DNA from: an uncultured bacterium
GTDB taxonomy: Bacteria > Margulisbacteria > WOR-1 > CAVSGV01
DNA length: 64,000 nt
Reading direction: 5' to 3'
NCBI GenBank assembly: GCA_963768305.1
Contig: CAVYHE010000003.1
Coordinates: forward strand, 256,001-320,000
Part shown: positions 44,378-64,000 of the stretch, one piece after another
How positions within the stretch are numbered: the stretch's first letter is position 1
Layout of the letters: each line of letters opens with the position of its first letter
Notes under the pieces: model-generated
What the model was told of the DNA's origin: nothing
Database searches by the model: none
What the model saw: the letters and a program-made list of their open reading frames with translations, nothing else
Made by a program: the position numbers and the translations under genes

Positions 44378-44452
44378 TTTATTGATTCGCTTTCTGCGCT
44401 CCCAAATAAATAGTATTCATATTTTGTGATTTCATTTATTGATGAAGTAAAA

Positions 44453-45378
44453 TGGGATTAAAGCCCCCTCCTCGAACTGTCAGCATCATTCTACAGAATA
44501 CAATTCATGGGTGCAAGAAGCTGAATCTGGGCCGTTCAGGATGATCATCAGATACTGTGAACTAACCTGGGAACTTCACAGTATCCCTTTATGCTCGACT
44601 GGAGCACACAGGCACGCACGCACGGGCGCAGGAGGCGCGGCCAGGCGCAAACCAGATTAGATATTTTATTAATTAACACAAGACAGATACATTCAAACAG
44701 TTGATAGACAGATGTTGCTCTTTAGCGTGAGAGAATAGACAGAGGATCAATGACGTTGGATACGAACACAAATGAGAGACAGAAGAACCTAACCCAATGA
44801 GTTGAAGACACGCTGGGAGCTTGAAGTTATTGCCGCTCAACTCCACCAAAGGAGCTTCTGGGATCCCCGAAAAGAAGACGCTACATTGCTGGCCTGCACG
44901 AATAACCATTCGGCTTGTGGCTCTTGCTGAATATGTTGATGACAGCTGCCGGCGCATAGAAAAAGAGCGACGGGTATTCGCAATCGTCATAGATAACCAA
45001 GCTGGTCGGACTGCTCTAACTGGTCGTTTCCAGAGAGGAATTAAGGCTTTGCTTGAACCTCCTCAAGTGATCGTTCGTTGTGTTCCTGTGTTGCCTTCTC
45101 CGTGGTCCCGCCAAAGGAGAATGACCTCTCCTTCGCTCTTCGAGCTACGAAGGGCTGGCAATTAAGGTGTGCTACGCACATTTGAAAGGGAAAGACCATA
45201 ATTCCTGCTCCGCCTTCGGCGGTATTTAACTTCGTGTCTTGCCGCCCGCCAATCCTTCGACAAGCTCAGGACAAGTGCCCGCCAAAAAAGAACCAAAGCT
45301 CCTGCTCCGACTTCGTCGGTATTTGACTTCGTGTTGTGCCGCCGCCCGCCAAACCTCTCCCAAAATGATGGTGGGGGA
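44453..45378 (+). repeat. Long inverted repeat, left copy (LIR-A), non-coding
   Basis: Aligns end to end with the reverse complement of 61048-61967. Confidence 0.95.
44551..44585. other. 35-bp palindromic site with an asymmetric core, in LIR-A
   Basis: GATACTGTGAACTA-ACCTGGG-AACTTCACAGTATC. Confidence 0.8.
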
Positions 45379-45445
45379 AAAACCTGGCACGTCATACTCA
45401 AAAAAAGTGGTGAAAAATGATACTAATTTAAGGCCGAAAAACCAC

Positions 45446-45506
45446 CGGTTATTTCACAGTATCCTATCGGGTATTTCACAGTATCGAGCGGTTAGTTCAC
45501 AGTAAG
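45446..45506 (+). repeat. Three 18-bp direct repeats at 22/21-bp spacing (operator- or iteron-like)
   Basis: CGGTTATTTCACAGTATC (45446), CGGGTATTTCACAGTATC (45468), CGGTTAGTTCACAGTAAG (45489); followed directly by TTGACT-18 bp-CATAAT. Confidence 0.85.
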
Positions 45507-45543
45507 TTGACTTTGTTGGCCACCCAAGACCATAATTCCCCCC

Positions 45544-47016
45544 ATGGCTGAAGAGCTGGAATACTTAACTCTTAATGAGATAAAAGCTTTTCTTAACTCC
45601 ATCGACGATATCCGCGACCGGGCGCTGATAACCCTATTTCTTAACACCGGCCTATTCCTGAACGAAATAACCTCGCTGAAAATTGATTCCGTCGACTGGA
45701 AGAATAAAATTCTGAATGTCCCCGGAAACCGTAAAAGGGCCATTCCTCTCAACGACCAGGTTTTTGATGCGCTTGCCAAATGGTCGAAGGAGCGTCCCTC
45801 GGGCAATATCTCCGAGCTTTTTGTCACAACAAAAGGCGCGCTGAAAGATCTGACCAGCCGCGGCGTAGATTATCTGATTAGAAAATACGCCGATCAAGCA
45901 GGCATCAAAAAAACGGGTCAATCCGCAGATACTTCGCAATACATTCGCAGTCCGGCTTTTCTCCGAAGAACCCTCCGTGGAAAAAGCTTCCGCCATTTTG
46001 GGCATATCCGATCTGGAATCGGTAAATCGCTATATAAGGGCCTCTAAATTGCCGCCGGCCAGGGTAGAGATAACTGAAAATCTTGAGCATATCGATACTC
46101 GCCATCCCCTTGTCAAAGCCGTTTCCAAAATGTTCCCGACAAAACCCAAAGCCGTTAAGCCGACGACCGAAATAAAAGGCCCAATAACTCCCAGCCCCGA
46201 AGAAGTGATCTTCGGAAGGGATAACATAATCGCCGACATAAAAGCCGATATCGCCAAAGGCCAGTCTGTTTTATTGACGGGTCCTCTGGGAATAGGCAAA
46301 ACGCATTTATTGAAGCACATGTTAAAAGTGCTTGGTCCTAATACAATATATATATCATCCCCAACCCCGCTTAAAACCGCCCTGATGCAAATACTCGTAA
46401 AACTTGATCCTGAATGGAATAAGACGCTGAATACAAGAGCTTCAACGAAAGATATAACCGACTATATTGTGAAAGATAAAAGGGGAAAAGCCTCCCGTCC
46501 TGCTTATCGACAATTTAAATAATATCAAGATTTCTGATATTGATCCTGTTTTAAGCTTTTTGAATAACTTCCCCGTACTTGCCGCGGCTGATGAAACAAA
46601 GCCCAAGCTGAAGCAGATATGGTGGCAGCTCAAACAGGTCGCGCTTCCGCCGTTAAATGAAGATGCCTCAAAGGAACTTATCAAATATCTTACGCAGAAC
46701 CTTACTATCAGCGATTATGAAATGCTTGAAACAAGGATATCTGACCCTTTCAAGCGGCCTTCCCATCGCGATCGTAGATATGGTCCGTCAAATAAGTCAT
46801 ATCCGGAAGATTTCAGTTGATGTTATTCGTGATGTTTATCACGAAGCCGGGATTCAATATCGCGACTGGACGATGGTAATAATCTTCATTTACTGGATAG
46901 CCGTCATTTTCAGGTTCCTTGCGCTCGGCACGAAAAGCTATGAGGCGTATTTCCTTGCAGGTTTCGGCGTAACTTTATTGATGATATTAAAAAATGTTAT
47001 GTCAATGTTGAGGTAA
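45544..47016 (+). CDS. Degenerate tyrosine-recombinase catalytic domain + AAA ATPase + C-terminal TM fusion (three apparent frameshifts)
   Basis: RDRAL..LFLNTGL...E, then PQILRNTFA and ILGISD...RY after a shift in the A-run near 45910; Walker A GPLGIGKT, Walker B LLIDN; two terminal hydrophobic helices. Confidence 0.7.
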
Positions 47017-47067
47017 AGGAGGGAGTTAAAAGAATTTAAGGGCTCAAATAATAAGAGGTGATAATAA

Positions 47068-47523
47068 ATGACAAGAAGAGAATTTATTGAAAAATGTTTT
47101 GGCAACAAACTTCAGGCAATCCCTTACAGTGAAGGCGACCATTTTAATGCTTTAGAGGAGGTCGAATCGCTACTTACTAAGCAAGGGCTTATTAATTTAG
47201 ATGAGAATGATATTGAGCAAATAACCAGTACAAGCGACAAGTTAGTGGCGATTTCTGCTGAGGCCCACGGAAAACATCGGTCGCACAGACTTGGTCACAA
47301 AATCCTTTCAAACATACCTGATTTCTTTTGGGATAAGAAACCCACAAATGCATTATTTAATATCACGGGAAGTCCCGATATAACACTAAATGAGGTTAAT
47401 GATGTTGCTGAACACATTTACGATTCAGTGAATCCCCACGCGAATATCATTTTTGGCGCGATTATCGATGAAAATAAAACCGATTACTTAAAAGCCACCG
47501 TGATATTCGGCGGCAAAAAATAG
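47068..47523 (+). CDS. Stand-alone FtsZ C-terminal domain protein
   Basis: GLINLDEND (T7-loop-like), NITGSPDITLNEV, ANIIFGAIIDE, ATVI; no GGGTG GTPase domain. Confidence 0.75.
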   Translation: MTRREFIEKCFGNKLQAIPYSEGDHFNALEEVESLLTKQGLINLDENDIEQITSTSDKLVAISAEAHGKHRSHRLGHKILSNIPDFFWDKKPTNALFNITGSPDITLNEVNDVAEHIYDSVNPHANIIFGAIIDENKTDYLKATVIFGGKK

Positions 47524-47540
47524 AAATGTGAGGTTAAAAT

Positions 47541-48107
47541 ATGGAACCAATTTTTACTTTATCCTTTCCGGAATATAAGGTTGTTCTGAAGTTATTGGGG
47601 CTCTATAAGCCAAAATATGGCTATTCAATATTATTGCCGTTGAGCAGGCAGCAAAAAGGCTTCGATCTGCTAATTTACAATTTAAATAAACATAGATCTG
47701 CTTCAATCCAGGTAAAAGGCTCTCGCTCATATGACGGACATAAAAACGATCCGCATGATTATAATCTTTGGTTTAAGAGGTTTAAATATAAAGAGGGTAT
47801 GGCCGATTTTTATATTCTGTTTAGTGTATATCCCCAATTGGCTTCTAATATAAAGCGTCTCGATCATTCAAGAAATACATCGCGTTACAGCTATTTATTC
47901 ATGCTATTAAAAGATGTTGAGATGGAGAAGCTCTTGGTTAACCTTAAAACTAAAAAAGGGAAAAGGGATAACTCTTTTCAGTTCGGTTTTGACTCTTCTG
48001 GCAGAAATATATTTCTGACCAGAGGTATTGGTAGGCAGAAAGAGAAGCCCTATAATAAATATCTGCTGGAGAACAGGGTCGATTTGATAAAGAAATTTCT
48101 GAAATAG
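47541..48107 (+). CDS. PD-(D/E)XK nuclease-like protein
   Basis: KGFDLL...IQVKGSR motif. Confidence 0.6.
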   Translation: MEPIFTLSFPEYKVVLKLLGLYKPKYGYSILLPLSRQQKGFDLLIYNLNKHRSASIQVKGSRSYDGHKNDPHDYNLWFKRFKYKEGMADFYILFSVYPQLASNIKRLDHSRNTSRYSYLFMLLKDVEMEKLLVNLKTKKGKRDNSFQFGFDSSGRNIFLTRGIGRQKEKPYNKYLLENRVDLIKKFLK

Positions 48108-48114
48108 GTAAATT

Positions 48115-49451
48115 ATGCTCGCACCCACCCATAGCGTATTCGGCATCTTTTTAACGCTGATATTCCTGGCGGTGTTCGGGATTCAGTGGAGCCTGCATTG
48201 GACGATAATTCTTGTTGCCATTTTTGGCTCGATCGTTCCCGACATTGACCATCCCCGTTCCGTCATAGGCAAGCTCTTCCCCTATATCTCCATCCCCTTA
48301 GAGCGCAGATACGGCCATAGAACGATAACCCATTCCTTCATCGGCTGGATAATTTCAACTGTCATTTTTGCTTTTCTTGTCTTGCTTGTAGTTTTGATAT
48401 TTAAATTTGTTTCGATTCTCGGACTTCCGTTTCGGGTTTTATCTTGGGCGGAGTCGAGGGCTTGGCTCCCCGCTGGATAGCCGCATTTTCAATATCTTAT
48501 TTTTCCCACCTGCTTTTGGACATGTTCAACAAGCGCGGCAGCCAGATGTTCTGGCCTAACCTCAGTCGTGATGTTATCCCGAAAAATCCAAAATACCGCC
48601 CTGAATCGGGCTCAAGCGTTGAGCCTTTTATCTTCATTATTCTTTTCATATTGATGCTTTTTGCTTTCCCGATCTCCAAATACGGGATAGCAAGTTCGCT
48701 TCGCTGGCTTATGGCTACTCCCGGCTCCGCCATGCAAGAATTCCAGTCCCTCAAGACCCATTCCTATGTTGATTTCAACGGCTATTACACGGAAACAAAA
48801 GAGCCGCTTGAAGGGACCGCAGAAATACTTGATGTAGACAAAGGACGGCTGGTAGTACTTTATAAGACCAAGATTTACACGTTAAGTGACGCTCTAGCCG
48901 CCGATATAACCGCCTCCCATGTCCGGCTGAAAAGGACGGATATTCCAATTAATATCACGCAGAAGATATTTAAGGATGAAAACCGCGATGAGTTGCTTGC
49001 TCAAATTCCTGCAGGCGCGCTTGTTTCGGGAACAGTTAAGCTCCCGGAAGGAATGGAGCTTCAATTCCCCGCCTTCCCCGGCTCTTATAAGCCAATGGAT
49101 CAGAAAAGCGGGAACCTGATCCTTTTATTCGCCTCAAAAGACCAAATTGAGAAGCTTGCCCTCACGGAAACCTTCGATCTGCTAAAAAGAAAGGACCAGG
49201 CCGACCTCGCCCAGCTGTACGCGCAGGCGGATAAGCTCAAAAGCCAGATATCGGAAGCGGAAACTGGCGGCGGACTAACTCCTTTGGGCCAGGAGCTTAT
49301 GATGAACAAGGATGACATCCAAAAGCAAAAAGCCCAGCTTGCCGATTTGAAAGGCCAGCTTGATGAAATAAATGTTAAAATTGAAGAGCTTCAATTGAAG
49401 ATAAAGGCCAGAAAGTTCGTTTTTTCAGGAGAGGTTTATTTAAGGCAATAA
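48115..49451 (+). CDS. YdjM-like membrane metal-dependent hydrolase with long C-terminal domain and coiled coil; frameshift near 48450
   Basis: M...TH, PDIDH, GHRTITHS, SHLLLDMF; heptad-rich C-terminus. Confidence 0.75.
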
Positions 49452-49462
49452 GGAGGCCTGAT

Positions 49463-49994
49463 ATGAGAAAATTAGTCGTTTATCTTGTAATAATGAGTTT
49501 ATTGTCCCCGCTTATCGGCTCTATTGCTTATGCTTTTGAGTATACCCTCGCCCCAAATGATACTCTTGAAGATCAAATTAATGCCAAAAGGACATGGATA
49601 CAAAGCAAACTATCGCTCCGGATGGCACAATTTCGCTTCCCTTCCTCGGAAGGGTCCAGCCTCAGGGCAAAACGCTCAGTGAATTTCAAACCTATTTAAC
49701 AACCGAACTTGCCAAATATGTGAACAAGCCTCAGCTTGTCGTTTATCTTAACGCCAAGATCGATATATGTCGTTCAGCATAATCTCAAGACGAATCTTTC
49801 AGAGGTAAGGAAGCTAAATCCATTGACAGAAGCTAAAGCATTATGCTGGCGAGGATTACACAAAAGAGATCAAATATGGCGATGTTATAACCGTCGATGT
49901 CGGCATTCAGCCTGATTGGTGGGAAACTAACTGGTACAAGGTCATATCCGCAACGGCTGTGCTCGTAGGAATAGATGCGGCATTAAAGAAATAG
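49463..49994 (+). CDS. Polysaccharide-export (Wza/Poly_export) domain protein, frameshifts
   Basis: Signal peptide, YTLAPNDTL, IAPDGTISLPFLGRV..QGKTLSE, YVNKPQLVV; C-terminal WWETNWYK hydrophobic tail. Confidence 0.65.
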
Positions 49995-50008
49995 GAGGGA
50001 GGTGACAA

Positions 50009-50776
50009 ATGAGCCCTAAACAAAGACCTGTAAACTTCGGCTGGATTCCTGATATCCCCGACCATCGCGATCATTTGTATGCCGCGCCTCTTGAATGGAT
50101 CGCAAAACTTCCCGCAAAGGTAGACCTCCGTCTCCAATGCCCTGATGTATACGATCAAGGCCAGTTAGGAAGCTGCACGGCGAACGCAATTGCCGGGGCA
50201 ATGGAATTTGAGCAGATAAAGCAGAAAGAAAAATATTTCATGCCCTCTCGCCTGTTCATTTACTATAACGAGCGAGCGATGGAACATACCGTCGAGTCCG
50301 ACAGCGGCGCGCAGATCCGCGATGGGATCAAAAGCGTCGGAAAGCAGGGTGATTGTCCCGAAAAGCTATGGCCGTATGATATAGCGAAATTCTCCCAGAA
50401 GCCGCCGGCGCCGTGCTACAAGAACGCCGTCAAGCACAAGGCGGTCTTATACCAGCGCGTAAGCCGTATTGCGAACCAGATGAAGGGATGTCTTGCGTCG
50501 GGATATCCGTTCGTGTTCGGATTTTCCGTATATGATAGCTTTATGAGCCCGGATGTAGCCAAGACCGGGCATGCCAAGATGCCGGAGCCGAAGGATAAAC
50601 TGGAAGGCGGTCATGCGGTAATGGCGGTCGGATATGATGATGAGAATCAATGGTTTATTGTCAGGAATTCGTGGGGAACGGGATGGGGAATGAAAGGATA
50701 TTTTACCCTGCCTTATGCATATCTGGCAGAAGAAAATCTTTCGGATGATTTTTGGACAATACGAATAGTGGAATAG
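50009..50776 (+). CDS. C1 family (papain-like) cysteine peptidase
   Basis: DQGQLGSCTANA, GGHAV, RNSWG...WG..GYF. Confidence 0.9.
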   Translation: MSPKQRPVNFGWIPDIPDHRDHLYAAPLEWIAKLPAKVDLRLQCPDVYDQGQLGSCTANAIAGAMEFEQIKQKEKYFMPSRLFIYYNERAMEHTVESDSGAQIRDGIKSVGKQGDCPEKLWPYDIAKFSQKPPAPCYKNAVKHKAVLYQRVSRIANQMKGCLASGYPFVFGFSVYDSFMSPDVAKTGHAKMPEPKDKLEGGHAVMAVGYDDENQWFIVRNSWGTGWGMKGYFTLPYAYLAEENLSDDFWTIRIVE

Positions 50777-50890
50777 AGGGTTTGGGTAAGGGGGCTCAAA
50801 AGATCGTTCTTCCGGTAGTTCCTCGAACTTAATTGAAAGATTGATAAGAAGTATATTAAGGTATATTATCGATAGAATAAATATTTTGTT

Positions 50891-51463
50891 ATGAGAAAGG
50901 CCAAAAGAATAAAAACCAATACCACAAGCTCAACCATACGAGAGAAGCTTCAAAGTCTTTCAGAAGACGATCTTAGGGTGTCCATAATCATTCCATTACT
51001 ATATGCACTAGGATGCACCGAAGTAAGAGATAATTGTGGCCCTGATGAGAAAGGTAAAGATATTATTTATAGTACTCCTCACTTATTGGGAGCTAATATA
51101 TATGGTGCGGTAATATTAAAAAATGATCGCAACCTCGGATTAGGTAAGATGGACAATTTGCGTTCACAAGCTCTTCGTGCCTTGAATGCATTCGGAAATC
51201 CCAGAGATCCTCGTATTGAAACGAAAGTGCATGAATTAATTTTTGTTACCTCATTTGACATTACAAGTGACGTTAGAGATTTCTTAGTGAAGAATTGTGG
51301 CAGTAATTTTCCAAATATGCATTTTGTTGACGGCGTCAGACTTGAGCTTTTAATAAGAAAAATAATTGATTTGTTCAAGAAACTCACTGGCAGAACATAT
51401 GTCTTCGATATTACCTCCTTTGCGGGAATGTGCGATAAAGTTAGGGAATGTAATTCGGAATAA
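50891..51463 (+). CDS. Restriction-endonuclease-like (Mrr-type) protein
   Basis: E..L...IIPLL.ALG...GPDEKGKDII...AV.LK, FVDG..L. Confidence 0.6.
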   Translation: MRKAKRIKTNTTSSTIREKLQSLSEDDLRVSIIIPLLYALGCTEVRDNCGPDEKGKDIIYSTPHLLGANIYGAVILKNDRNLGLGKMDNLRSQALRALNAFGNPRDPRIETKVHELIFVTSFDITSDVRDFLVKNCGSNFPNMHFVDGVRLELLIRKIIDLFKKLTGRTYVFDITSFAGMCDKVRECNSE

Positions 51464-51466
51464 AAT

Positions 51467-54400
51467 ATGAGTAAACACGGGCAAAACAATCAAAAAGGAG
51501 TATTCGCCCAAAATTGGGCTGCTCTGTCATTGTTTCTCCAATTCTATAAAGATCCGAAGTTTTCGTACATTCAACTTGAACCAAACACTTCGGAAGATTT
51601 TGATCTCGTCTTTAATGATGGGAAAAAGATTGTTTGCGAAACAAAATACAGGATAAAGAAGTTCAATTATGCAGATTTAAAGCTTTTACTTTCAAAGATA
51701 TTGGACCGGAAATCGATATCAGAGCAGGATGAAATATTAATAGTTTGTCGATCTGTTAATGAAACCTTAGCTTCGGATGTCAAAAATATCAGATTCTTTA
51801 ATCGTTTAGAAGAGAAATTCCTAGAGAAGAATTTTAATAAGCAAATGATAGGATTGATTCCAAGGGTTAGTTTTTGGGTTATTAATAAATCGTTACATAA
51901 GGACATTAATTTACCATTAATATCACAAGCAATAAATCTATGGCTTCCCCAACAAGACCTGAAGAAATTTACCGACCATATTATGCAAGATAAAATAATG
52001 CGATTGTCGACGCAAGGAAGAGCGTATAGCCGAAATGATTTTAATAATGAAATCAACAATCTAAATGCATATGTCTTGCAAAGCAGCGATAAGTTCAATA
52101 AAAGGTTAACACGAAAAGAGAAACAATTCAAAATGTTGGAAGACGATGTAAACAGGAACAAAGGGATTAAGTGGGGAACGGCCTCATCATCCGCCATTTC
52201 TGCTCAATGGGATTTAATGTCTTTTGTTTTAACAAAATTAAGGAAGAGAAACGATCTTGATCTCAAGAAATGGGATGATTTGTGGCAACTCAAAAGTGCT
52301 TTTCAGTTTATTTATACCGTTTTCGATATCTTTAAAAATAATATGGGGACTGAACAAAATATGACATATATCCTTGGATATATTCAAAGAGATATCAAGG
52401 GAATACGTGGTTTCTATGGCCATTCGGACTTCTTTAATCATGGAGTTGTTGAGCTTGTGACAAAGATAATTGATGCCCCAAGCGGGCATAAATATCTGAA
52501 AGAAGCATTTGCCATTGTTAAATATCTTATTAATTTCAATAAAGATGAATATTTCTATCTTAAAGATCGCGACCAGGATCGGGGCCAGTGGGAAAAGGAA
52601 GAAATATGTAAGTTAATAACGAAGATATATAAAATTGCCCCCCCTGAGATTAAGGAATCTGTTTTCCAGCTAATTACATCGGGATTTAACCTCACGGAAG
52701 ACGAAGGTGAATTTAGCCATTATGCGCCAAGAGAAGCTTTCGAAATTATCAGGGAGTGGTTAAATGAAGATTTTGTTAATAGAATCACTCCGCTAGTAAA
52801 TATAATTGTAGATCAATATAAAAGGTTTTATAAGAAGTTTGGGAAAAATATTGAATTTAAAGGCTGGGAGCTTATGGGCGGTGGAGTCGGAATCTGGGAG
52901 GGGAATTATCGTGTTTCAGATCGTCATTTTATTGAATATATCTTGTCACCAGCTATCAGAAAATATTATGAATCAAATAAAGCTGCCGGTTGGCAATTAA
53001 TACTAGATAAGTTTATTAGTAAGACAGCACAAGTTAGTTCTCACCAACCTGATTTCTTAAATAGAGCCGTTTTCGATATTGTATGCGAAAGATATGCAGA
53101 AGGAGATGAAAATTCTAATCGCCAAGCTTTCAAGATTCTTAAAGAGTTCATTCTTTCCCCCAAAGGGATTCCACATAAATCCGAACTAATCTATCAGAAC
53201 ATAGATCGCCCAACAATGTCTGACGAAAAGAAATGGAAGCTGGTTAAGATTATGACCGATAAATATGACATTCCTGCCAATCCTTTTATTGAGCCAATAG
53301 TTGCTGGACTAGTAAAGAAAGGGCATCCCAAAGCCAAACAGTTATTAATAGGGTGGTTTATGAACCCGAAATTCTATCCTCGATTCCCTTTTGATGGCAG
53401 ATATATCTCTACAATTAAGGGATTAATTGAAACAAACTTAGATTTATCAATTGATTTATTTAAAATCATAATGCGGAGTGAATATATTAAAACGGCAAAA
53501 TCAGAGCATTATGATGTTTATGATGTTGCAAACATATTATTTGAGATATTGAAAAGAGATTATGTGCAAGGTTTATCCATTATTCGAATGTTGGAATCCG
53601 AGAAGGCATTGAGCATCGATCAACAGATTATCTACACTTATAGCTTATGCAATTATCGTGGGAATGAAGACTCAGATGATTTAAATCTACTTATTAAAGT
53701 GTATGCCGATATTGTTGATCCATTTCTGACAAGGATGCATGATGATATTAATTCTATTAACCATGTATTGACTTTTGATAATAGCAGAGAAGCATTAATA
53801 CAGTTTGCCTCAAGGTTGGCTGCTAAGGGCAAAATCCATGAGGCATTAAGAATAGTTAAAGTCTTTTTAGATGATACCGATCCATATCTACCTTCTAACG
53901 CCCCAGTGGGTTATAAAATTGAATATAATGAACACCAAAGAATCGAAAGAGGAGAAGCGCCACTCACAATTACATCTGTGAGAGGATGGTGTGCGTGGAC
54001 TTTGATGAGATGTTCGGTTTTGTCTGGAAGAGAATACATCCCAATGGTAATTGAATTTACAAAGAAGTTGATTGAAGACAATAACTATTATGTTGTTCAT
54101 TTGGCATGTAATGCATTGGCTCACCTAGCTAGAAACCGTCTGACAGTATTGCCAAAGAATAGTGATATTATGTTCTTTAACGATGATAAGCGAAAAGCTC
54201 TGGAAATGGCAAAAGATGTCGAAAAAATTGCTTTTTCACTCCTAGATAGGTTTGTTGGCTGGCCAACTCCAGTTCAAAAGGCACTTATTAAAGATGTAAT
54301 ATATGTATTTGATAACATTACTCAGCTGAACGAATCAGATGCTACAAAATTAGTTACCAAATTAATAGGCTTGCCGAAGGAGGCCGTTGCAGAATCTGCC

Positions 54401-55096: not shown

Positions 55097-55138
55097 CTAC
55101 TTTTTTCGCTCCTAGTGCCTCAACCTTAACATGACAGT

Positions 55139-58100
55139 TTATTTCCTAAGAAAATCAATCTCATCGATCTCTTTCATGATTCTGTATGTTTCTGTCAGGG
55201 CAACAATCATTTTCTGATAATGTTCAATATCTTCATTTGATAGTTCCCGGCCTTTACGGTCCTTAAGCCATTTTTGTGCGGGCTGATAACCGCCGATGTA
55301 AAAGTTCCACGCAATTTCCGGCACTTTTCCAAAATATTGCTCTGCATTAATGTATATCTTGCCATCTTTATAGGTTACCTTTTCAACAGTATCTGAGCCG
55401 GAAGCGGGATATGTAGTAATATATTTATCCACTTTAGGAGATTCAAGCAGATGTAGTTCCCGCAACTCTGTCCCAAGTTTTACTAACTTTTTGAATGTTT
55501 TTGTGTCTTTCGGATATGGCACACGAGGAAAATCTATTTTCAAGAATTCTTTATACTTATTACGGTATCTAGGCGAATACAGAACAGCATAAATATAATC
55601 ATAAATATCTTCCGGATTTGTTTGGCCGATTATACTTTCTATTTTAATGGTAATTTCTTTGTTAAGGTTTGATACTCTTTCATCCCCTACAGGGTAAAGA
55701 TAAAGTGGAAAAACATATGTTTGATCACTAGCAGCATGAATATCGGCAATAGATTTAGAAACATATGCCCTATCAAAAGGTTGATTGGCCGGCATTGAAC
55801 GCGAAGAGAGTAAGGTGATATTATCTCTGCCAACAACATTCACATTTGTTTTTTCTCTTGGATATGCAATAAAGCCTTTTGAATTTCCACTATATGCTGT
55901 GTACCGCACATCAAAAGGACGATAAAGTATTTGTTCAATACTATACTTCTTGCTCAAATCCTCTTTTGCCCATTCGACTTTCCAATCTCGCCCATCTTCT
56001 GGCAATTGGTATTTACTTCTTATTTCTAAATCAGACAATGTTTGGAAATCATCAATTACTTTTTTAATGTCCTTTTTTGAAAATTGCACAGTAGTATCAT
56101 CGCGTTTCGTTTGAATGCCAGAATTGTATTCGTGAAATATTTCAGTTAAAGAAACCCCGTTTTTATATTGCTCTTCTAGCCCAAAATCCTTAGGAACAAA
56201 GAAATAATAAGGATCGTTATATTCAATGTTTTTCCATTTCACCTTTTCTATTTCGGTTTCACTGAGTATTTCATATTTCGCTTCCCGGCTGCCATATAAC
56301 TCTGAATGATAAACGACTCCTAGTCCCGTTTTATTTTCGCTTTTGCGGACAAATATCGAAATAGCCACTCCTTGTTGTATATCAAATACATTTTTATCTT
56401 CTTTATTCAGCTCTTTCTTTCTTGAACTCCCATGAAGATCAAGCACATATATCTTTTCAAAGGTTTCAAGCAAATGCTTCCTCATTTGGCGATGTGTAAT
56501 ACCATCCAAGAAAGAGTTATTAGTAATCATTGCAACAATGCCAGTTTTGTTTTTTTCAATAAAATGCTCTGCAAGTCGAATAAATTTAATATAATCATCA
56601 TCCAAGTTTATCTTTTTTTCGCCAAGACCTTTTTTGTAATCATCTAGTTTAGATAATATCCATGCCCCTTTATTCTTTGATTTTACATTGTAAGGTGGAT
56701 TACCCATGACCACCATAATCGGAGTTTCATTTTTAATCATATTCTGCCTGCTTTGGCCTCTTCTGCAATGCTTTCTGCCAAACCAAAAGCAAATCATAGC
56801 TTGTTGGTTTGCGCCTTCCTCAAGTGAATTAGTTAAATAAATTCCAAGACGATTATTAAACATTCTAAAATCCGATAATTTAAGTGCAATACTTAATTTA
56901 AGATGAGCGATAGTATATGGAGTCATCATTAATTCAAAGCCATGTAGACGCGGCAAAAGGTCATTATGTACATATGCTGGCCAGCTGCCCATCTTGGCCC
57001 TGTTCATTTGAGATATTCATATATGTTCCTGAATAGTTTCACTAATAAATGTCCCTGTGCCGACTGCCGGATCAAGAATTTGCACACGATGTTTCCCATT
57101 CGGTAGTTTTGATGCATCAGCAAGCCCATCTCGAAGCTGAAATCTTTTGCAAAATATGATCAACAGCATCGAACAATAAAATCGAACAACCGGCAATGGT
57201 GTATAAAACGCCCCCATTTTCTTATCGAAGTTCAGGATCATATTCTTTTAAAAAGTCCTCGTAAAAATGAATCACAGGATCTGGTGCATTCTTGTTTACC
57301 CACATAATCATCCCTATAAGTACTTCTATTAGTTATTTGAGTTTGCATGATGAAACAGATATCACAATTCATCAACGATAAACTTAAGCGCTTATCAAAA
57401 TCGGCCCCGGCGATATGATCAAAAAAATGTCTTAAAAATGGGTTAGATGCGGGAATTAAATCTCTTGCGCTTCTGACGTGAAAAAGTATCAGGGGTTTCA
57501 TCGTAATATCTTGCAACAAATAAGCCATAGACTAGAGTTTGGGCATACATATCGGCAAAAGCATTCCTGAGTCAGTCGTGAACAAGAGCTTTTTTATCGT
57601 TTCATATACACGCAATATCTCTGTATTTTTTTTGAATCTAAATCTGAAGAAAGATAATGCCTAATATTGTCCCTTATTCTTTGAGCCTTACCTCCCATGA
57701 TCTTTGCAAGGTGCTCACCTGACTTGATTGGCTCTTTTTGTGATTGTGTAAAGTCGATAAGGGTTTTCGCGACATGTTCATAATTTTCCGGTAAAGGTGC
57801 AATTGAACGTGTCTTAAGGTCATATTCTGCTATTTTTATTGGTTCTTCATAACGTTCTCCATTCCTATAAAACCTGAAATTCAAGATAATCCGTAAGAAC
57901 TAAATTCGTATAGCCATAATATCTTGCCATTTGCTCAGATTTTTCAACTTTATCTAATGGAACACCAATATCTTTTGCTTCAATATAGAGAATAGGGACA
58001 CTATTGTTGATTACGACAAAATCCGGTTTATTCCCTTCTGCTGCTCTTTCATCGTGGCCTATGCGTTGAACCTTTATCGTCTCAAATATTCCGTTTAACA

Positions 58101-58209
58101 ATATTTCAAAATCGGTACGGTAGCCCATCTCGCTTGTTTCTGTGTGGGTAAATTTAGAGGCAACAGACTTTAGATATTTGGACATTAAATCTTTTGTATT
58201 TTCTGCCAT
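55139..58209 (-). CDS. Type IIG / type ISP-like R-M enzyme (REase + N6-MTase + specificity domain), multiple frameshifts
   Basis: KPDF...YIEAK, GAFYTP, LDPAVGTGTF, GNPPY, YRPFD.R, IGGYQPAQKWLKDRK. Confidence 0.8.
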
Positions 58210-58724
58210 TGCTTTGAATTATACGCCCATAAGAAAAGAGAGTAAAGATTAGAAGTTCTTGCTCCCAGCCTTTTCTGTTTTGAATTTTATCCGTCGCTTT
58301 CTGTTGAAAACCACAAAACAGTGTTAATGAAATCGACGGCATCTTCAAGCGAAAACCCCAATTCCATGAGGAATTCGATTTTTCCCATCATTGTTATCAC
58401 CTTTGATTAGTATTATTTTGCTCCCCAGCCTTTCCAGTATAGCATTTTACCGCCTTTTCCCTGTAAAGAGCGCTCACGTTAGGACTTCGTATAAAGCTCT
58501 CTGTCCCGAAAAAATCCTCATCCTTGCGGATTTTTTCGGGGATTAGTTCGCGCTCTCCTCCAGTCGCCCGCCTCCGGCGAGGCTCCTTCCGGCCCTCCGC
58601 TCGTTGCGCTCTCTCGCCCATATATTAGCTTTAGGTAGGCTCAATCGCTCCACTCGCTTCGGGTGACAGGGGCGGTAAAATGCTGTTCCTTCCTATGTTT
58701 TCATTTCATAGGGAGGTGGTTTTC

Positions 58725-59257
58725 ATGTCTCGTTTGGCAGGTGTCATTGGTTCTCGTTCATTGCCCGCTTCTTTTGCTCCGCTTGTTTCCCGCGTTGTTT
58801 CTCTTCTTCTTTCCCGTGGCTACAGCATTGCCTCCGGCGGCGCCGTGGGCGCTGATTCATTTGCTCTTGAGGCTGTCATTCAGCAGGGGGCGGCTTCACG
58901 CGGCATCATTCATTCAGCTTGGGCTTCTGCTTCTGGCTTTCCTAGCGTCCGTTCAGCCTCAGGTTTCTCGCTTTCATTGCTTCCGGCGGTCAGGTTGTTT
59001 GGGGCTCGGCTCAGCCGGGTCAGTCCCGTTCTGCTGTTGTTTCAGCTCTTCTCGGCAGGAACAGGCGGCTTGTTTCTGCTTCCTCGGTTGTTGTTGCTTT
59101 CCTTCACGGCCAGTCTCGCGGCTCTCTTTACACAGTCCGTCAGGCCATTGAGCAGGGCGTTCCGGTCATTGTGTTCCTTTGCGGCGGCGGGGCGTCTTTG
59201 CCGGCTGATTTGGCTTCCAGGTGTTTAGTATTTACGGAAAAGGAGGTGTTATTATGA
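58725..59257 (+). CDS. SLOG/DprA(Smf)-like protein; two frameshifts
   Basis: GGAGG RBS; VIGSR, SGGAVGAD, then LLGRNRRLV, SRGSLYTVRQA. Confidence 0.7.
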
Positions 59258-59421
59258 GAATTTGCAGAGTGTGCGGTTCATTCCTCGTTCCTTGCAACGA
59301 AGGAATAGATCATATCGTCTTCTATCATCCTATCCTTCATAGGCATGTTTATATCTGTCAGACCTGTCTTACAGAGATTCAGAATATCCTCGAGTACGGC
59401 TTCCTCGCTCCCTGCGCTTAA
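59254..59421 (+). CDS. Small zinc-finger protein
   Basis: AAGGAGGT RBS; CRVC...CQTC; ATGA overlap with the upstream gene. Confidence 0.65.
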   Translation: MRICRVCGSFLVPCNEGIDHIVFYHPILHRHVYICQTCLTEIQNILEYGFLAPCA

Positions 59422-59548
59422 CCCAAAAGGCCTGATTCATCAAGAAACAGGCCTCTTTTTGGTCGCTACTCAGATTTGTTCTCACATATTACCAAATACA
59501 TATTTTGTTATATAAAACCGTCATAATTTAAGATAATATTAGTGTACT

Positions 59549-60304
59549 ATGAAATATGTTTATTTTGACGATAGCATTCATGATAGAGGCGGATTTATTA
59601 TTGGGGCATTTGTCTCTTTAACAAAAGACCCAGATACTGATCTATCAAATATATTAATCAATAATGGATTTGATCCCAACAATGATGAGTTTAAAAGTAG
59701 CACGCATTTTAAAGAATGTCCGAAAATGATTGATGTAAGAGATCAGCTGAAATCATATGTTAGAAATAATTGTGGAATAAGTATCATTGTGCTGCCCAGA
59801 AAAAATAGAGATAAATTAGGAGCTGAGACTATTAATGCCTTTCATAAAATGGTTCAATTCAATACAATAAACGATCCGATGAGCATATATTTTGACGAAG
59901 GGATATTCAAAAACATTAAAGATGGGCAGAAAATAGCCTCTCAATATTCTTTTGATAGATGCAACTTTAATTTTAAAACGAGCTCTGTAACATGCAAAGG
60001 GATACAGCTTGCCGATTTAGTTGCACATACTTGTTCGGTAATGTTATTAGATCAAATGGGCTTGATTAACAAAACAATAAAAGCAGGAGATAATTCTGGA
60101 TATGCTCCTGACACGGATATTGAATTGGGTTTTGAATTGTGGGCCTCTATAAGAGGGAATTTCTTTTGCAAGCAGAAAGCCGTTTCGTCTCCTTATTATA
60201 TAGTTGAGCCATATGGATTATATATTTCTCACTTATGTAGCAACTCCTTATCAATTAAAGCTCGAGAACGCTTTGGTGAAACATATCGCGGCTGTATTCA
60301 CTAA
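59549..60304 (+). CDS. DUF3800-like protein
   Basis: YFDDS start, YFDEG, GIQLADLVA. Confidence 0.7.
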   Translation: MKYVYFDDSIHDRGGFIIGAFVSLTKDPDTDLSNILINNGFDPNNDEFKSSTHFKECPKMIDVRDQLKSYVRNNCGISIIVLPRKNRDKLGAETINAFHKMVQFNTINDPMSIYFDEGIFKNIKDGQKIASQYSFDRCNFNFKTSSVTCKGIQLADLVAHTCSVMLLDQMGLINKTIKAGDNSGYAPDTDIELGFELWASIRGNFFCKQKAVSSPYYIVEPYGLYISHLCSNSLSIKARERFGETYRGCIH

Positions 60305-60403
60305 CGCCTGCTTATTTGGATTGACTTGCAGTATCGTTTACCCTAATTCATAATGCTGAAAATAAGATAAAGTCAAGGATAGAAAAGGGGTAATGAAAGG
60401 AAA

Positions 60404-60985
60404 ATGATGATGCTGGTTTTGATAAAATTAGCAATTTATTTGTTTTCGATATTTGTATTTTTTAAAGTCTTATCTTTATATTATGAATATCGTTCAACAA
60501 TAGTAACGGTTGCTAGCCATAACATTGGGGGGGGAGGCATAGGAACATTTTTAGGGGAATTAAAATGGAAGTTATTACGCTTTTGGGAAAAATTCAGAGT
60601 CTTTGTCCTCTTTATTCTTATTGCATATATTATTTTTGTGGCATTTGGGGATTATTGGACACGGATAATTTCATTTGCATTTTCTGTATATACCTTTGTA
60701 ATTAATAGGGATGCTTTTGATTTGTTAAGTTCTTATGGGTATGAAAAAAACAAAGATAAGTTAGCGATTGTTGAGAGATATTTATGGACACATTATAAAG
60801 ATGGCTGTTTTGAGAATTATGATATGGATTTAAGGAAAAGAGTAAATGGGTTTGATATCTATATAAAGATAGGCAAATATGATGTTGCCACTGAAGAAGC
60901 TAAACATAATCTTGAAAAATATGTGAGGGAAGCTTGTGGAATAGTTGGCCTCAATCTAAAATCAGTTATTGTTAATATTCACTAA
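60404..60985 (+). CDS. Membrane hypothetical protein
   Basis: AT-rich ORF with 3 hydrophobic segments. Confidence 0.6.
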   Translation: MMMLVLIKLAIYLFSIFVFFKVLSLYYEYRSTIVTVASHNIGGGGIGTFLGELKWKLLRFWEKFRVFVLFILIAYIIFVAFGDYWTRIISFAFSVYTFVINRDAFDLLSSYGYEKNKDKLAIVERYLWTHYKDGCFENYDMDLRKRVNGFDIYIKIGKYDVATEEAKHNLEKYVREACGIVGLNLKSVIVNIH

Positions 60986-61047
60986 TGAATGCCTTTGTTA
61001 CTGTCCAGATCCCATTTGTTTAGCCACTTTTTCAATACAAAATCCCC

Positions 61048-61967
61048 TCCCCCACCATCATTTTGGGAGAGGTTTGGCGGGCGGCGGCACAACACGAAGA
61101 CAAATACCGCCGAAGGCGGAGCAGGAGCTTTGGTTCTTTTTTAGCGGGCTTTACCCTGAACTTGTCGAAGGATTGGCGGGCGGCAAGACACGAAATTAAA
61201 TACCGCCGAAGGCGGAGCAGGAATTATGGTCTTTCCCTTTCAAATGTGCGTAGCACACCTTGATTGCCAGCCCTTCATAGCTCGAAAAGCGAAGGAGAGG
61301 TCATTCTCCTTTGGCGAGATTACGGAGAAGGCAACACAGGAACACAACAAACGATCACTTGAGGAGTTTCAAGCAAAGCCTTAATTCCTCTCTGGAAACA
61401 ACCAATTAGAGCAGTCCGACTAGCTTGGTTATCTATGACAATTGCGAATACCCATCGCTCTTTTTCTTGCGCTGGCAATGGTCATCAACATATTGAGCAA
61501 GAGCCACAAGCTGAATGGTTATCATGCAGGTTAGAAATTAGCGTCTTCTTTTCAAGGATCTCAAGAGCTTCTTTGGTGAGTTGAGTGGTAATAGCTTCAA
61601 GCTCCCAGCGTATCTTCAACTCATTGGGTTAGGTTCCTCTGTCTCACATTTGTATTCATATCCAATGTCATTGATCCTTCGTCTTTCTTTCACGCTAAAG
61701 AGCAACATCTGTCTATCAACTGTTTGAATGTATCTGTCTTGTGTTAATTAATAAAATATCTAATCTGGTTTGCGCCTGGCCGCGCCTGCTGCGCCCGTGC
61801 GTGCGTGCCTGTGTGCTCCAGTCGAGCATAAAGGGATACTGTGAAGTTCCCAGGTTAGTTCACAGTATCTGATGATCATCCTGAACGGCCCAGATTCAGC
61901 TTCTTGCACCCATGAATTGTATTCTGTAGAATGATGCTGACAGTTCGAGGAGGGGGCTTTAATCCCA
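61048..61967 (-). repeat. Long inverted repeat, right copy (LIR-B)
   Basis: Reverse complement of 44453-45378; the 35-bp palindrome is at 61835-61869. Confidence 0.95.
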
Positions 61968-61983
61968 CATAATTATAGCTGCG

Positions 61984-62016
61984 AACCGCTGTGTTTTCTA
62001 AACCGGCGGTTTTTTC
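61984..62016 (+). terminator. Intrinsic-terminator-like hairpin just outside LIR-B
   Basis: AACCGCTG...CGGCGGTT followed by a T-run. Confidence 0.5.
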
Positions 62017-62121
62017 TTTGCGGGAAATAGCGCGGCGGGCGGCGTTTGCCGCTACCCAAACGCCGCCCGCCGAATGTTCGCCGCGTCGGGACACATTGTT
62101 GTTTTAGATGAGGTTTGAATT

Positions 62122-62637
62122 TTATTCGCTTTTATCTTTATCGAACATAGCCCCATAGCTGCCTCTATATCTCGATAATAAATCTCTAGCAAAATTAAAG
62201 TTCTTTCTATTGCTATACCATTTCTTCCCAAAAGCATCTTCAATAATAATATCTTTTACTTTATTTTCATCATTTTCTAGATATGGCGAATCAAAGCTTA
62301 TGTATCCATGAGCAGGGATCATTACAGGGAAAACAAGTTTTACGCCATTATTATAATAACTATTATATTCGCTTATTTTATTTGACTCTTTATCACGATA
62401 AAGCATCCTCATTATCGTCTCGACTTTATTCCCCTGATTAACAAGAACAATTTGTGCACTCTTTTTATCGGAATATCTTGGAGACGAAGCAATGATAATC
62501 TTGATATTGCGACGTTCCTGCCTAAGGGCCAGCCAAAGTGAAACAAATACTGCAGCCATTGTCCCTATTGCTGATAATGCATGCCAGTTTATGTTGGCCG
62601 TCCATATTAGCTTAATCATCTCAATTAAATTAATCAT
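62122..62637 (-). CDS. Hypothetical protein, N-terminal TM anchor
   Basis: W.ALSAIGTMAAVFVSLWLA segment followed by a soluble domain. Confidence 0.7.
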   Translation of the reverse strand: MINLIEMIKLIWTANINWHALSAIGTMAAVFVSLWLALRQERRNIKIIIASSPRYSDKKSAQIVLVNQGNKVETIMRMLYRDKESNKISEYNSYYNNGVKLVFPVMIPAHGYISFDSPYLENDENKVKDIIIEDAFGKKWYSNRKNFNFARDLLSRYRGSYGAMFDKDKSE

Positions 62638-62638
62638 C

Positions 62639-62836
62639 TTATTTCACAAGTTTATCAATTGATACATTAAGAGCTTTAGCGATCTTATGAAGGGTGTTGA
62701 TCCCAATATCCTTATATTTGCGATAAAGGATTTTTTGAAGCGTATATTGTGATATTAAGGCTTTTTGGGCAAGTTTCGCGATAGATACTTTCCGGTATTT
62801 ATTAATGTTTCTTGCAATATTCTCAATCAAGCTCAC
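62639..62836 (-). CDS. XRE-family HTH regulator
   Basis: LAQKALIS..TL.KI...TLHKIAKALNVSIDKL; start approximate. Confidence 0.8.
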   Translation of the reverse strand: MSLIENIARNINKYRKVSIAKLAQKALISQYTLQKILYRKYKDIGINTLHKIAKALNVSIDKLVK

Positions 62837-62864
62837 AAATGAAATTATATCACCCACTTGAAGC

Positions 62865-62893
62865 TTGACAATGTAGCCGTATAGGACTATATT
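62865..62893 (+). promoter_or_regulatory. Promoter for the serine recombinase
   Basis: TTGACA-17 bp-TATATT, then an AGGAGG RBS. Confidence 0.65.
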
Positions 62894-62919
62894 CCTCGCA
62901 TAAAAGGAGGTAATAACCA

Positions 62920-64000
62920 ATGAATAAAATGAAAATTGGCATCTATACCCGCGTTTCCACCGATGGACAGGCCGAAGTGGAGTTCAACTCCTGCGAGGCT
63001 CAGGAAGCCAAGATAAAAGCCTTTATCTCCAGCCAGGACAATATGGAGATATATAAAACATATTCTGACCAGGGTTACAGCGGAGCCGACACTAATCGCC
63101 CCGCCCTTATGGATTTGCTAACGGATATTCGGCAAGGCAGCATAAACTCTGTTATTGCTTATAAGATCGACCGGCTTACAAGGTCGCCGAAGGATTTCTA
63201 TCAGCTTATCGAAGTATTCGAACAGCATGATGTCAGCTTCATATCGGTAACTGAGAGGTTCGATACCTCTACGCCGTCAGGTCGTCTCCTCAGAAATATA
63301 ATGCTTACTTTCGCGCAGTTCGAGCGCGAGCTTATAAGCGAAAGGATAAGGGATAAAATGCTCGAACGCGCGAAAAAAGGGCTCTGGAATTCTGGTATTA
63401 CCCCGCTCGGCTATGGCAGAGAAAATAAGAAACTGATCATCAACGCCAATGAAACTAAGATAGTAAAAACCATCTATGATACCTATTCTAAAACCGGATC
63501 GATGGCTGCTGTATACCATAAGCTAAAAGACCAGGGAATTAGGGGAAGGAACGGCAAGATTTTTCCAAATGTAACATTATCCACAATTTTGAGAAATAGG
63601 CTTTATACCGGCAAGATAACTCATCGCGGCCAAACATATCAGGGCATCCATGAACCGATCATTTCAGAAGAGCTTTTCAGCAAAGTTCAATTGCTTCACA
63701 AGGAAAAGGTTAAAAAGGCGAAGGTTTACAACTATTCCCTTTTCACCGGGCTTGTGAACTGTAAAGAATGCGGTTCAAAAATGACTTTTGTTTTCACTAA
63801 CAAAAGCAGGAAGCAGCCCGGTCCCAAACTGAGGTATTATTATTATCGCTGTACCAGCATTTCAAAAAGGGATTTTTCTGTTTGTTCCACCAGACAGGTG
63901 AGCATGGATCGGCTTGACGATTTTGTCATAGAAAATCTCTCAAGGATCGCCGCCGATCCTAATTATGTCGACAGTTTGATTTTCAGGAACAACCACCCGG
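62920..64000 (+). CDS. Large serine recombinase, truncated by the window end (absent from the ORF track)
   Basis: IYTRVSTDGQ, D.GYSG...RP, KIDRLTRS, FAQFERELISER, later C..CGS.M...YYRC zinc ribbon. Confidence 0.92.
   Translation, partial: MNKMKIGIYTRVSTDGQAEVEFNSCEAQEAKIKAFISSQDNMEIYKTYSDQGYSGADTNRPALMDLLTDIRQGSINSVIAYKIDRLTRSPKDFYQLIEVFEQHDVSFISVTERFDTSTPSGRLLRNIMLTFAQFERELISERIRDKMLERAKKGLWNSGITPLGYGRENKKLIINANETKIVKTIYDTYSKTGSMAAVYHKLKDQGIRGRNGKIFPNVTLSTILRNRLYTGKITHRGQTYQGIHEPIISEELFSKVQLLHKEKVKKAKVYNYSLFTGLVNCKECGSKMTFVFTNKSRKQPGPKLRYYYYRCTSISKRDFSVCSTRQVSMDRLDDFVIENLSRIAADPNYVDSLIFRNNHP

Follow-up and report, generated by a model that had tools for sequence, protein, structure and literature searches.

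The DNA analyzed here is a stretch of 64,000 nucleotides (nt), hereafter the window, from contig CAVYHE010000003.1 of an uncultured WOR-1 bacterium of the Margulisbacteria, whose genome (designated G000) comprises 1.53 Mb in 16 contigs. The window probably contains most of a 19.9-kb integrative element (44454-64355) that owes its place at the terminal CCA of a tRNA gene to a large serine recombinase (LSR), keeps a mirrored spare copy of its own attachment site (attP), and carries a trio of conserved genes together with variable defense cargo. The trio encodes a tyrosine-recombinase domain joined to an AAA+ ATPase and a transmembrane anchor (Int-AAA+-TM, or Int), a fusion protein with a YdjM domain (YdjM fusion), and a short Poly_export-domain protein (mini-Wza). 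The repeats, junctions, empty site, conservation and defense content can be read from the DNA itself. Throughout the text, G-numbers denote genomes and L-numbers denote loci; the survey of the phylum covered 146 genomes, with E ≤ 1e-20 as the cut-off for a strong Int match, and the metagenome set consisted of 79 loci carrying Int. Protein families were scanned with Pfam, NCBIfam, PADLOC, and PHROGs, RNAs with Rfam, tRNAs with ARAGORN, and folds with Foldseek.

The element is bounded by two pairs of inverted repeats. Self-comparison of the window returned a long pair, the L arms, at 44453-45378 and 61048-61967 (926 nt aligned, 93.8% identical), a similarity far above chance; the outermost 283 nt of the arms are 99% identical, the spacing between them is 15,669 nt, and no further copy occurs in the 1.53-Mb assembly. 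A second pair, the I arms, was found at 61965-62095 and 64224-64355 (132 nt, 99.2% identical) when the self-comparison included sequence past the window. The left I arm begins exactly at the end of the right L arm, so that L and I abut at 61965-61967, and the right I arm, which the LSR gene forms with its 3' end, halts at a minus-strand tRNA gene (64352-64426). With arrowheads marking the orientation of the arms, the order is flank, L>, cargo, <L, I>, a segment with a 171-amino acid (aa) open reading frame (ORF), an XRE regulator and the LSR, <I, and tRNA. Long inverted repeats had been listed as a feature of the element in a first-pass annotation of this DNA; they are real, but form only part of a larger mirrored unit that holds the attachment site of the LSR. 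An origin of the repeat in a composite transposon or insertion sequence was ruled out, as the arms lack a consistent ORF. The features that define the ends of the element and its recombinase segment are as follows:

44454-45378, plus strand: left copy of the L arm, the outer half of a split ~1.05-kb inverted unit, whose first bases form the attL junction.
61048-61967, minus strand: right copy of the L arm, belonging to the intact internal unit.
61960-61970, no strand: internal L/I junction, predicted to be an intact, inverted spare attP with the core TGG.
61965-62095, minus strand: left copy of the I arm, which repeats the last ~44 LSR codons on the minus strand, likewise in one of the elements of genome G085 (G085b).
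62122-62920, minus strand: 171-aa protein of no assigned family (62122-62637) and XRE-type regulator (62639-62920).
62920-64000 in the window and on to 64380, plus strand: intact LSR of 486 aa, whose last 8 codons lie inside the tRNA gene.

If the ends of the element were joined (<I + L>), the product would be the reverse complement of its internal junction (<L I>), and attL, the internal junction (as its reverse complement) and attR have TGG alone in common. At attR this TGG is the CCA end of the tRNA gene, into whose 3' end attR runs on. The element extends past the end of the window, with its right end at 64355 and the end of the LSR gene at 64380, which places the LSR stop codon 25 nt beyond the element. 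The XRE and LSR pair that the first-pass annotation placed at the right edge was found there. The LSR carries Resolvase (E 1e-38), Recombinase (E 2e-18) and zinc-ribbon (E 1e-12) domains; its best NCBIfam matches are CcrB and XisF, all far under the cut-offs, with weaker matches to invertase models. The 171-aa ORF of this segment is not conserved in G085b, and no candidate for a recombination directionality factor emerged. A switch in the C-terminal tail of the LSR between the integrated and the excised state was considered and dropped, the read-through tails of G000 and G085b being conserved at the DNA level and not as protein. LSR genes are common in the phylum, being detected in 78 of the 146 genomes (E ≤ 1e-20) with up to eight in each.

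The G000 element lies between the genes for iPGM (41141-42673) and PGK. An empty locus, comparison with which was one of the checks proposed for the element, occurs in G082, a genome of the same family: there the genes for iPGM and PGK and the tRNA gene, which is inverted, all fall within ~520 nt. Together with the 3-nt core at the tRNA 3' end, this bore out the earlier suggestion of an integrative element moved by a serine recombinase. The same site in G085 carries an unrelated 3.1-kb insert. The complete layout recurs in four more trio-bearing elements of three genomes (two in G085 and one each in G129 and G132), and in G088 it is complete up to the contig end. G085 is a one-contig genome whose two full elements occupy different sites: G085b stands by GlnA/GDH and FtsZ at tRNA-Gln, with L arms of 914 nt (99.2%), I arms of 197 nt and the core CTGGG, and G085a stands by DnaG/RpoD at tRNA-Glu, with L arms of 1292 nt (100%), I arms of 161 nt, the core TAGC and 38 kb of cargo. 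The cores at tRNA 3' ends are TGG in G000 and TAGC, CTGGG and TGG in the G085 elements. The elements of G129 and G132, with an LSR of only 33% identity, have a junction overlap of 21-30 nt and no tRNA. The two arms of an element are 92-100% identical within a genome as against 71-78% between genera, which points to ongoing exchange between the two copies.

The relative position of Int and LSR also varies among relatives. The two genes are far apart on the same strand in G000, G085a, G085b, G129, G132 and G088, and far apart on opposite strands in G064; they are adjacent on the same strand in L041, L062, L078 and G069, and adjacent on opposite strands in L045 and L080. These four arrangements are exactly those that would be expected of a circle with two repeats that flips and inserts through either copy. 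Among the metagenome contigs whose upstream edge is the contig end, 29 of 57 stop no more than 700 nt before the start of Int, and since repeat boundaries break short-read assemblies in this way, a repeat beside Int appears to be general. The recombinase layout is also found without the trio. A mini-element of the same design in G085 (C1:1101121-1107752, locus L196) ends at tRNA-Met; its L arms, of 56 nt, enclose 3.8 kb, and its I arms, of 240 nt, enclose a DprA-like gene and an LSR. This shows that the recombinase module is self-sufficient and that integration does not require the trio.

The operon Int-AAA+-TM, YdjM fusion and mini-Wza, in that order, occurs phylum-wide, and all three products are membrane proteins. 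With the ATPase part of Int as query, 33 strong places were found in 25 of the 146 genomes, often two or three per genome; the YdjM fusion was detected in 37 and mini-Wza in 39 of the 146. Where at least 3.5 kb is available downstream of Int, 34 of 35 metagenome loci have the YdjM fusion after it on the same strand; where at least 8 kb is available, 29 of 30 have mini-Wza after it, the lone exception being L088. Of 28 loci, 7 showed a DprA-like gene in the 10 kb examined. The variable genes occupy the gap between Int and the YdjM fusion, the gap between the YdjM fusion and mini-Wza, and the region past mini-Wza. In 25 loci examined for cargo (120 proteins), restriction-modification parts were identified in 18, and the other cargo included GmrSD, an OLD-like ATPase-TOPRIM protein, AbiEi/Eii, a reverse transcriptase with a nuclease, and PLD, Schlafen-like, DUF4917 and patatin genes; the elements of G085 and G082 have similar cargo. 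The first-pass annotation had read these genes as a conserved backbone with variable defense slots and had proposed a gene-neighborhood search; that search found the four backbone genes and the repeat together in relatives, with defense genes varying between them. By record title, the full-length relatives come from Margulisiibacteriota, Saganbacteria, WOR-1, Marinamargulisbacteria and "uncultured bacterium", except for three short contigs (Patescibacteria and Parcubacteria among the protein hits, and Acetomicrobium among the loci).

The cargo segment of the G000 element contains the following genes:

45544-47016, plus strand: Int-AAA+-TM gene with at least three frame breaks, encoding a tyrosine-recombinase domain, an AAA+ ATPase and a C-terminal two-helix membrane anchor.
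47068-48107, plus strand: first variable slot, AT-rich, with an FtsZ C-terminal-domain-only protein (47068-47523) and a 188-aa protein of no assigned family (47541-48107).
48115-49451, plus strand: YdjM-fusion gene, encoding the YdjM domain, a beta-rich domain and a long alpha-hairpin; one frame break.
49463-49991, plus strand: mini-Wza gene, encoding a signal peptide, Poly_export and a C-terminal hydrophobic helix; frame breaks.
50009-50776, plus strand: papain-type (C1) peptidase; the same position is occupied in G082.
50891-55096, plus strand: AT-rich pair of genes for proteins of 190 aa and 1209 aa.
55139-58209, minus strand: Type IIG restriction-modification enzyme with frame breaks, intact (1028 aa) in G085a.
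58680-59251, plus strand: DprA-like (SLOG) Rossmann-domain protein, a conserved backbone gene with one frame break.
59549-60985, plus strand: variable slot, AT-rich, with a DUF3800 protein and a 193-aa protein of no assigned family.

The composition profile agrees with the alternation, described at the outset, of moderately GC-rich genes with AT-rich nuclease and restriction-modification genes: the GC content is 0.44-0.55 at 44500-46500, 48000-50500, 58500-59500 and 61000-62000, and 0.30-0.39 at 47000-48000, 50500-58500 and 59500-61000. Scans with Pfam, NCBIfam, PADLOC and PHROGs left the 190-aa and 1209-aa proteins unmatched; both are presumed to be defense cargo and represent a candidate new defense pair. 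When 22 proteins were compared with PHROGs, matches were limited to an integrase, a regulator, the DprA-like protein, a hydrolase and a peptidase, with no capsid, portal, terminase or tail protein, and Pfam gave no match in the element to a relaxase, VirB4 or coupling protein. The initial statement that phage structural, VirB4 and relaxase genes are missing was upheld, and the sequence beyond the window revealed neither a prophage nor an integrative conjugative element. FtsZ C-terminal-domain-only proteins of 125-151 aa recur in these islands (window 47068-47523, L019:17032-17475 and L066:4502-4879), and the gene for the one in G085b adjoins a ClpP gene; such proteins could cap FtsZ filaments, acting as a division inhibitor or an abortive-infection effector.

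The Int, YdjM-fusion, mini-Wza, Type IIG and DprA-like genes of G000 are each split into pieces. These frame breaks are assembly indels and not decay, because nearby housekeeping genes are broken alike: over 20 kb past the right edge of the window, GAPDH is in three pieces, FtsW, PGM and peptidase M24 are in two each, and PGK is broken too. Since the G000 frames are broken in this way, they were left unrepaired and intact homologues from relatives were used for the protein analyses.

Several observations concern the flanks of the element and the remainder of the window. The AT-rich interval between iPGM and the element (42732-44452) holds a truncated ORF6N/anti-repressor-like gene (PADLOC PDC-S05), a gene for a 210-aa protein of no assigned family and a small membrane ORF; neither G082 nor G085 has this interval, which probably represents the remains of an older island. 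ARAGORN called the G000 tRNA (L003:2352-2426) as Arg(TCG) and its orthologue in G082 and G085 as Ala(CGC), a difference of one extra base in the anticodon stem-loop that is probably an assembly indel. A 37-39-nt direct repeat of the 5' half of the tRNA (L003:2390-2428 and 3227-3264, or 64390-64428 and 65227-65264 on the scale of the window) flanks an insert of ~800 nt between the tRNA gene and PGK, with a 211-aa ORF of no known family, which looks like a relic of another integration at the same tRNA. The sole Rfam match in the whole window is a 6S RNA gene at 7983-8138 (RF00013, 61.6 bits).

The L arms and the region before Int contain a set of putative cis-acting sites:

44477-44504, plus strand: promoter-like site reading inward, within the best-conserved outer part of the L arm.
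44551-44585, no strand: 35-bp dyad with two inverted GATACTGTGA copies around a 15-nt center, mirrored at 61835-61869.
45195-45343, plus strand: two tandem, terminator-like units of ~97 nt at the inner end of the arm, each holding a UUCG-type hairpin and, after it, a T-rich run.
45446-45506, plus strand: the TTCACAGTA motif in three direct copies spaced 21-22 nt apart, which abut a promoter-like site (45507-45536) just before Int.

The dyad sits ~100 nt inside each L arm and is conserved in the relatives of family f1. Its motif of 10-11 nt, present in both L arms, is found at the Int promoter as well, in two or three direct copies, and this combination of dyad and direct repeats is kept in G000, G085a, G085b and G082 and also in locus L075. 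A reading of the dyad as the site of a telomere resolvase was ruled out, its 15-nt center not being palindromic. The outer ~400 nt of L are conserved as DNA without a consistent ORF. Because of the inward promoter-like site, this ORF-less conservation and the UUCG terminators, the L arm (44454-45350 and 61075-61967) may encode a non-coding transcript of ~0.7-0.8 kb; Rfam gave no match in the arm at E ≤ 1. Trio-bearing elements have L arms of 394-1292 nt and the trio-less mini-element has arms of 56 nt, and this association of long L arms with the trio suggests that L is part of the biology of the trio.

Intact Int-AAA+-TM proteins (G085 and G082) have 489-491 aa. The head is a complete tyrosine-recombinase catalytic domain (residues 7-168 cover positions 2-170 of the Pfam profile) and is followed by a linker, the AAA+ ATPase, and an invariant YRDW motif that precedes two membrane helices at the C-terminus. 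An N-terminal core-binding domain is absent, the protein beginning at the catalytic domain and its model having no extra N-terminal domain. By Foldseek, the head resembles XerA (E 6e-9, root-mean-square deviation ~2 Å over 165-170 residues). In an alignment of 26 family sequences with XerA and XerD, Arg24, Arg131 and Tyr163 are invariant; a near-invariant Arg63 stands in place of the catalytic Lys, His II varies among the sequences, and Ile, Phe or Arg replaces His/Trp III. The family does not keep the full Arg-Lys-His-Arg-His/Trp-Tyr set. The earlier designation of a "pseudo-integrase" holds for this degenerate active site (Arg-Arg-Tyr kept, Lys changed to Arg and both His lost), but not in the sense of a fragment, as the catalytic domain is full. 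The ATPase has an invariant Walker A motif, GxxGxGK(T/S), and an invariant Asp322; in Foldseek it matched RFC small subunits, RuvB, Cdc6/Orc1 and NLRs alike, without a clear choice, and in family scans it gave weak matches to Avs, mad8 and nSTAND models.

A wider group of ~500-aa relatives (e.g., P0201; 175 clusters at E ≤ 1e-30) has the full canonical residues together with the same ATPase and anchor. Because these relatives keep the canonical set, the ancestor was probably an active recombinase, with the Margulisbacteria branch having become degenerate. One of them is named from Limibacter armeniacum, and a search of 401 genomes sampled from the phylum to which G146 belongs (the genome with L189, titled Croceitalea) found none at E ≤ 1e-40. 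Forms of 290-305 aa with the ATPase and anchor alone also exist, some of them named from Stahlbacteria.

YdjM of model bacteria is a membrane protein regulated by the SOS response and lacks an assigned function. The YdjM fusion has ~440-460 aa, with the YdjM domain (PF04307) matched at E 2e-27 to 4e-28 and its site (His6, Asp43, Asp45, His68, His73, His124 and Asp128) invariant in 27 sequences. The structural model (pLDDT 73) places a beta-rich domain with a long alpha-hairpin after the YdjM domain. This hairpin part recalls, as modeled, periplasmic adaptor proteins or Wzc; its Foldseek matches were not significant (best E 0.03), with HlyD and LipC (Z 9.1) standing among many generic hairpins. 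Intact mini-Wza (176 aa) consists of a signal peptide, Poly_export (E 1e-19) and a C-terminal hydrophobic helix ending in Lys residues, and it showed neither an SLBB match nor a Cys after the signal peptide (no lipobox). A complex prediction for the C-terminal domain of the YdjM fusion with mini-Wza scored 0.09, which counts neither way.

The favored explanation of these features is that the LSR of the element would insert it at the extreme 3' end (CCA) of the tRNA gene between iPGM and PGK. The free form would be a circle of two unique segments, one of 15.7 kb with the cargo and one of 2.1 kb with XRE and LSR, separated by two inverted units of ~1.05 kb, each consisting of an I arm and an L arm with the crossover site at the I/L boundary. 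Integration would split one unit, sending its L half to the left end and its I half to the right end at the tRNA, and the other unit would stay internal as the intact, inverted spare attP. Recombination between the two units could flip the segments, either copy could serve for insertion, and the LSR may also excise the element to a circle. The cargo segment always begins with Int-AAA+-TM, the YdjM fusion and mini-Wza and in most cases has the DprA-like gene; the slots between the conserved genes take changing restriction-modification and other anti-phage genes. Int-AAA+-TM may bind the dyads of the two L arms as well as the repeats at the promoter of its gene, so that the trio would handle the DNA of the element at the inner membrane.

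Roles in the movement or maintenance of the DNA can be envisaged for the trio, and the DNA transfer or partition module that the first-pass annotation suggested for the membrane ATPase, the hydrolase and the Wza-like protein is hypothetical. The first role, nick-and-export, is modeled on the tyrosine-recombinase-like relaxases MpsA of SGI1 and TcpM of pCW3 (PMC6414798), and is possible by analogy, if somewhat doubtful. It gains appeal because machinery for conjugation is nearly absent from the phylum, VirB4 (PF03135) being found in 1 and the coupling protein (PF02534) in 6 of the 146 genomes, with none in the class of G000. Tethering, replication or Flp-like amplification of the excised circle is a rather doubtful alternative, in which Int-AAA+-TM might amplify the circle by flipping the two repeats, in the manner of Flp on the 2-micron plasmid. 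Both of these roles sit uneasily with the degenerate active site and with the existence of a mini-element that has no trio. It is also conceivable, though unlikely, that the trio forms a minimal machine that moves DNA independently of any type IV secretion system, giving the islands their own exit route. The recombinase-derived head would then bind and nick the dyad, the membrane-anchored AAA+ motor would feed the strand to an envelope conduit made of the YdjM fusion and mini-Wza, and the DprA-like protein would act on the single strand. If the trio does move DNA, this would be a new route of gene transfer in a phylum almost without conjugation genes.

A number of observations weigh against the proposed element and the DNA-handling role of its trio. 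Without its Lys and both His, Int may not cut DNA, and the dyad/iteron motif was recognized in family f1 only and not in other families. G082 has L arms (with patchy extension to ~3.7 kb), and an LSR is missing within 8 kb of them; at G145:C4, Int, XRE, LSR and tRNA-Glu are present, with no repeat and with relics of Int and YdjM; and in G069 the LSR stands directly before Int. No relatives of Int or related contigs were found in a viral contig collection. We infer the excised circle, the restored attB and the flipped isomer from the arrangement of the DNA, and they were not directly observed. LSRs are not known to act on two attP sites, which leaves the use of the spare copy unexplained. Further points bear on specific rivals. 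The trio may be cargo, as the mini-element, with the spare-attP layout and an LSR of its own, makes it dispensable for integration, and in G126:C1 and G112:C50 the trio was found with no detectable repeat or LSR (40 kb and 20 kb examined). On this view the trio would be no more than the cargo that has done best on a generic LSR island: a system at the membrane for anti-phage defense or exclusion, taking no part in what happens to the DNA of the element and composed of an AAA+/STAND-like switch with a DNA-nicking head, the YdjM hydrolase and a periplasmic partner; we regard this as a tentative possibility. It would fit the neighbors of the trio, which are almost always defense genes, and the weak similarity of the ATPase to Avs, mad8 and nSTAND models and its Foldseek matches to NLR resistosomes. 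However, the trio has a fixed position and direction as the first genes inside the L arm, it is accompanied by long L arms where the mini-element has short ones, the same motif is shared by both L arms and the Int promoter, and no PADLOC model matches the trio beyond weak P-loop hits.

The 15.7-kb segment might instead be an invertible, phase-variable cassette of a fixed chromosomal island, with the LSR or the Int domain as invertase. Inverted repeats that are nearly identical within genomes, a dyad of loxP/FRT size in each arm, the LSR matches to invertase models and the occurrence of the recombinase module in both orientations would all agree with it, but close relatives carry the element at different tRNA genes and in different neighborhoods (at two sites within G085), the site in G082 is empty, and the junction cores lie at tRNA 3' ends. 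Flipping would also leave expression unchanged, because each arm has the same inward promoter-like site, and the cassette is accordingly improbable. The numerous frame breaks of the element and the 6% divergence of the G000 arms, part of which may be due to assembly error, might suggest a decaying, dead island with pseudogenes throughout, or an artefact of palindromic mis-joining in the assembly. The same kind of breaks in nearby housekeeping genes, the intact LSR and several intact cargo genes, and the same layout with intact genes in the one-contig G085 and in G129 and G132 make this explanation very improbable. An integrative element with a mirrored attP remains the explanation that we favor.

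The element belongs to a known kind in one respect, as a defense island mobilized by an LSR. A literature search found no description of an inverted attP copy or of the Int-AAA+-TM/YdjM-fusion/mini-Wza operon, and nothing relevant on mobile elements of Margulisbacteria or on YdjM/STAND/SLOG islands. The findings define a phylum-wide family of 20-40-kb carriers of defense genes in Margulisbacteria, an uncultured sister group of cyanobacteria. They also introduce a protein architecture for which the literature searched gave no description, a tyrosine-recombinase domain with an AAA+ ATPase and a membrane anchor, always partnered with a YdjM fusion and mini-Wza. The purpose of the mirrored site, whether two entry sites, flipping or control of direction, matters for serine integrases as tools.

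Comparison with known systems shows partial likenesses. MpsA and TcpM (PMC6414798) share with Int a catalytic fold without a core-binding domain of its own, an adjoining short inverted-repeat cis site and the absence of a classical relaxase; unlike Int, MpsA needs the type IV secretion system of a helper and has no ATPase or membrane anchor fused to it. The weak and non-significant Foldseek matches of the YdjM-fusion model to Wza-Wzc (9r62 and 9r6b) accompany a resemblance in composition. Like Wza-Wzc, the trio sets a Poly_export protein with a C-terminal helix beside a helical-hairpin inner-membrane protein and includes a membrane-linked P-loop ATPase; unlike it, mini-Wza has only 176 aa, no lipobox Cys and no detected SLBB, and the membrane part of its partner is a YdjM hydrolase. 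The yeast 2-micron plasmid has Flp and FRT sites in 599-bp inverted repeats, and the present element is similar in having two unique segments split by long inverted repeats, a dyad of 34/35 bp in each and an encoded protein of the tyrosine-recombinase type. It differs in the degenerate active site of Int, in integration by a separate LSR and in that inversion is here deduced from layouts; no origin or Rep gene was identified in it. Tycheposons of Prochlorococcus, a lineage related to Margulisbacteria, are reportedly small cargo islands that target tRNA genes, lack capsid and conjugation genes and in some cases carry LSRs, whereas primase/helicase hallmark genes and flanking direct repeats of tRNA fragments were not found here; we know of no tycheposon described with a mirrored attP or with the trio. 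Another frame of reference is given by LSR elements and prophages (phiC31, Bxb1, A118 and SPbeta SprA, the CcrAB of SCCmec and XisF of Anabaena), which have a three-domain LSR at the edge of the element, attL and attR sharing few bases with the target, and insertion at a specific conserved gene end. In contrast to these, the attachment unit of ~1 kb is here present twice in inverted orientation with an intact, inverted attP kept inside the element, the LSR frame crosses the crossover, and the targets are the last bases of tRNA genes.

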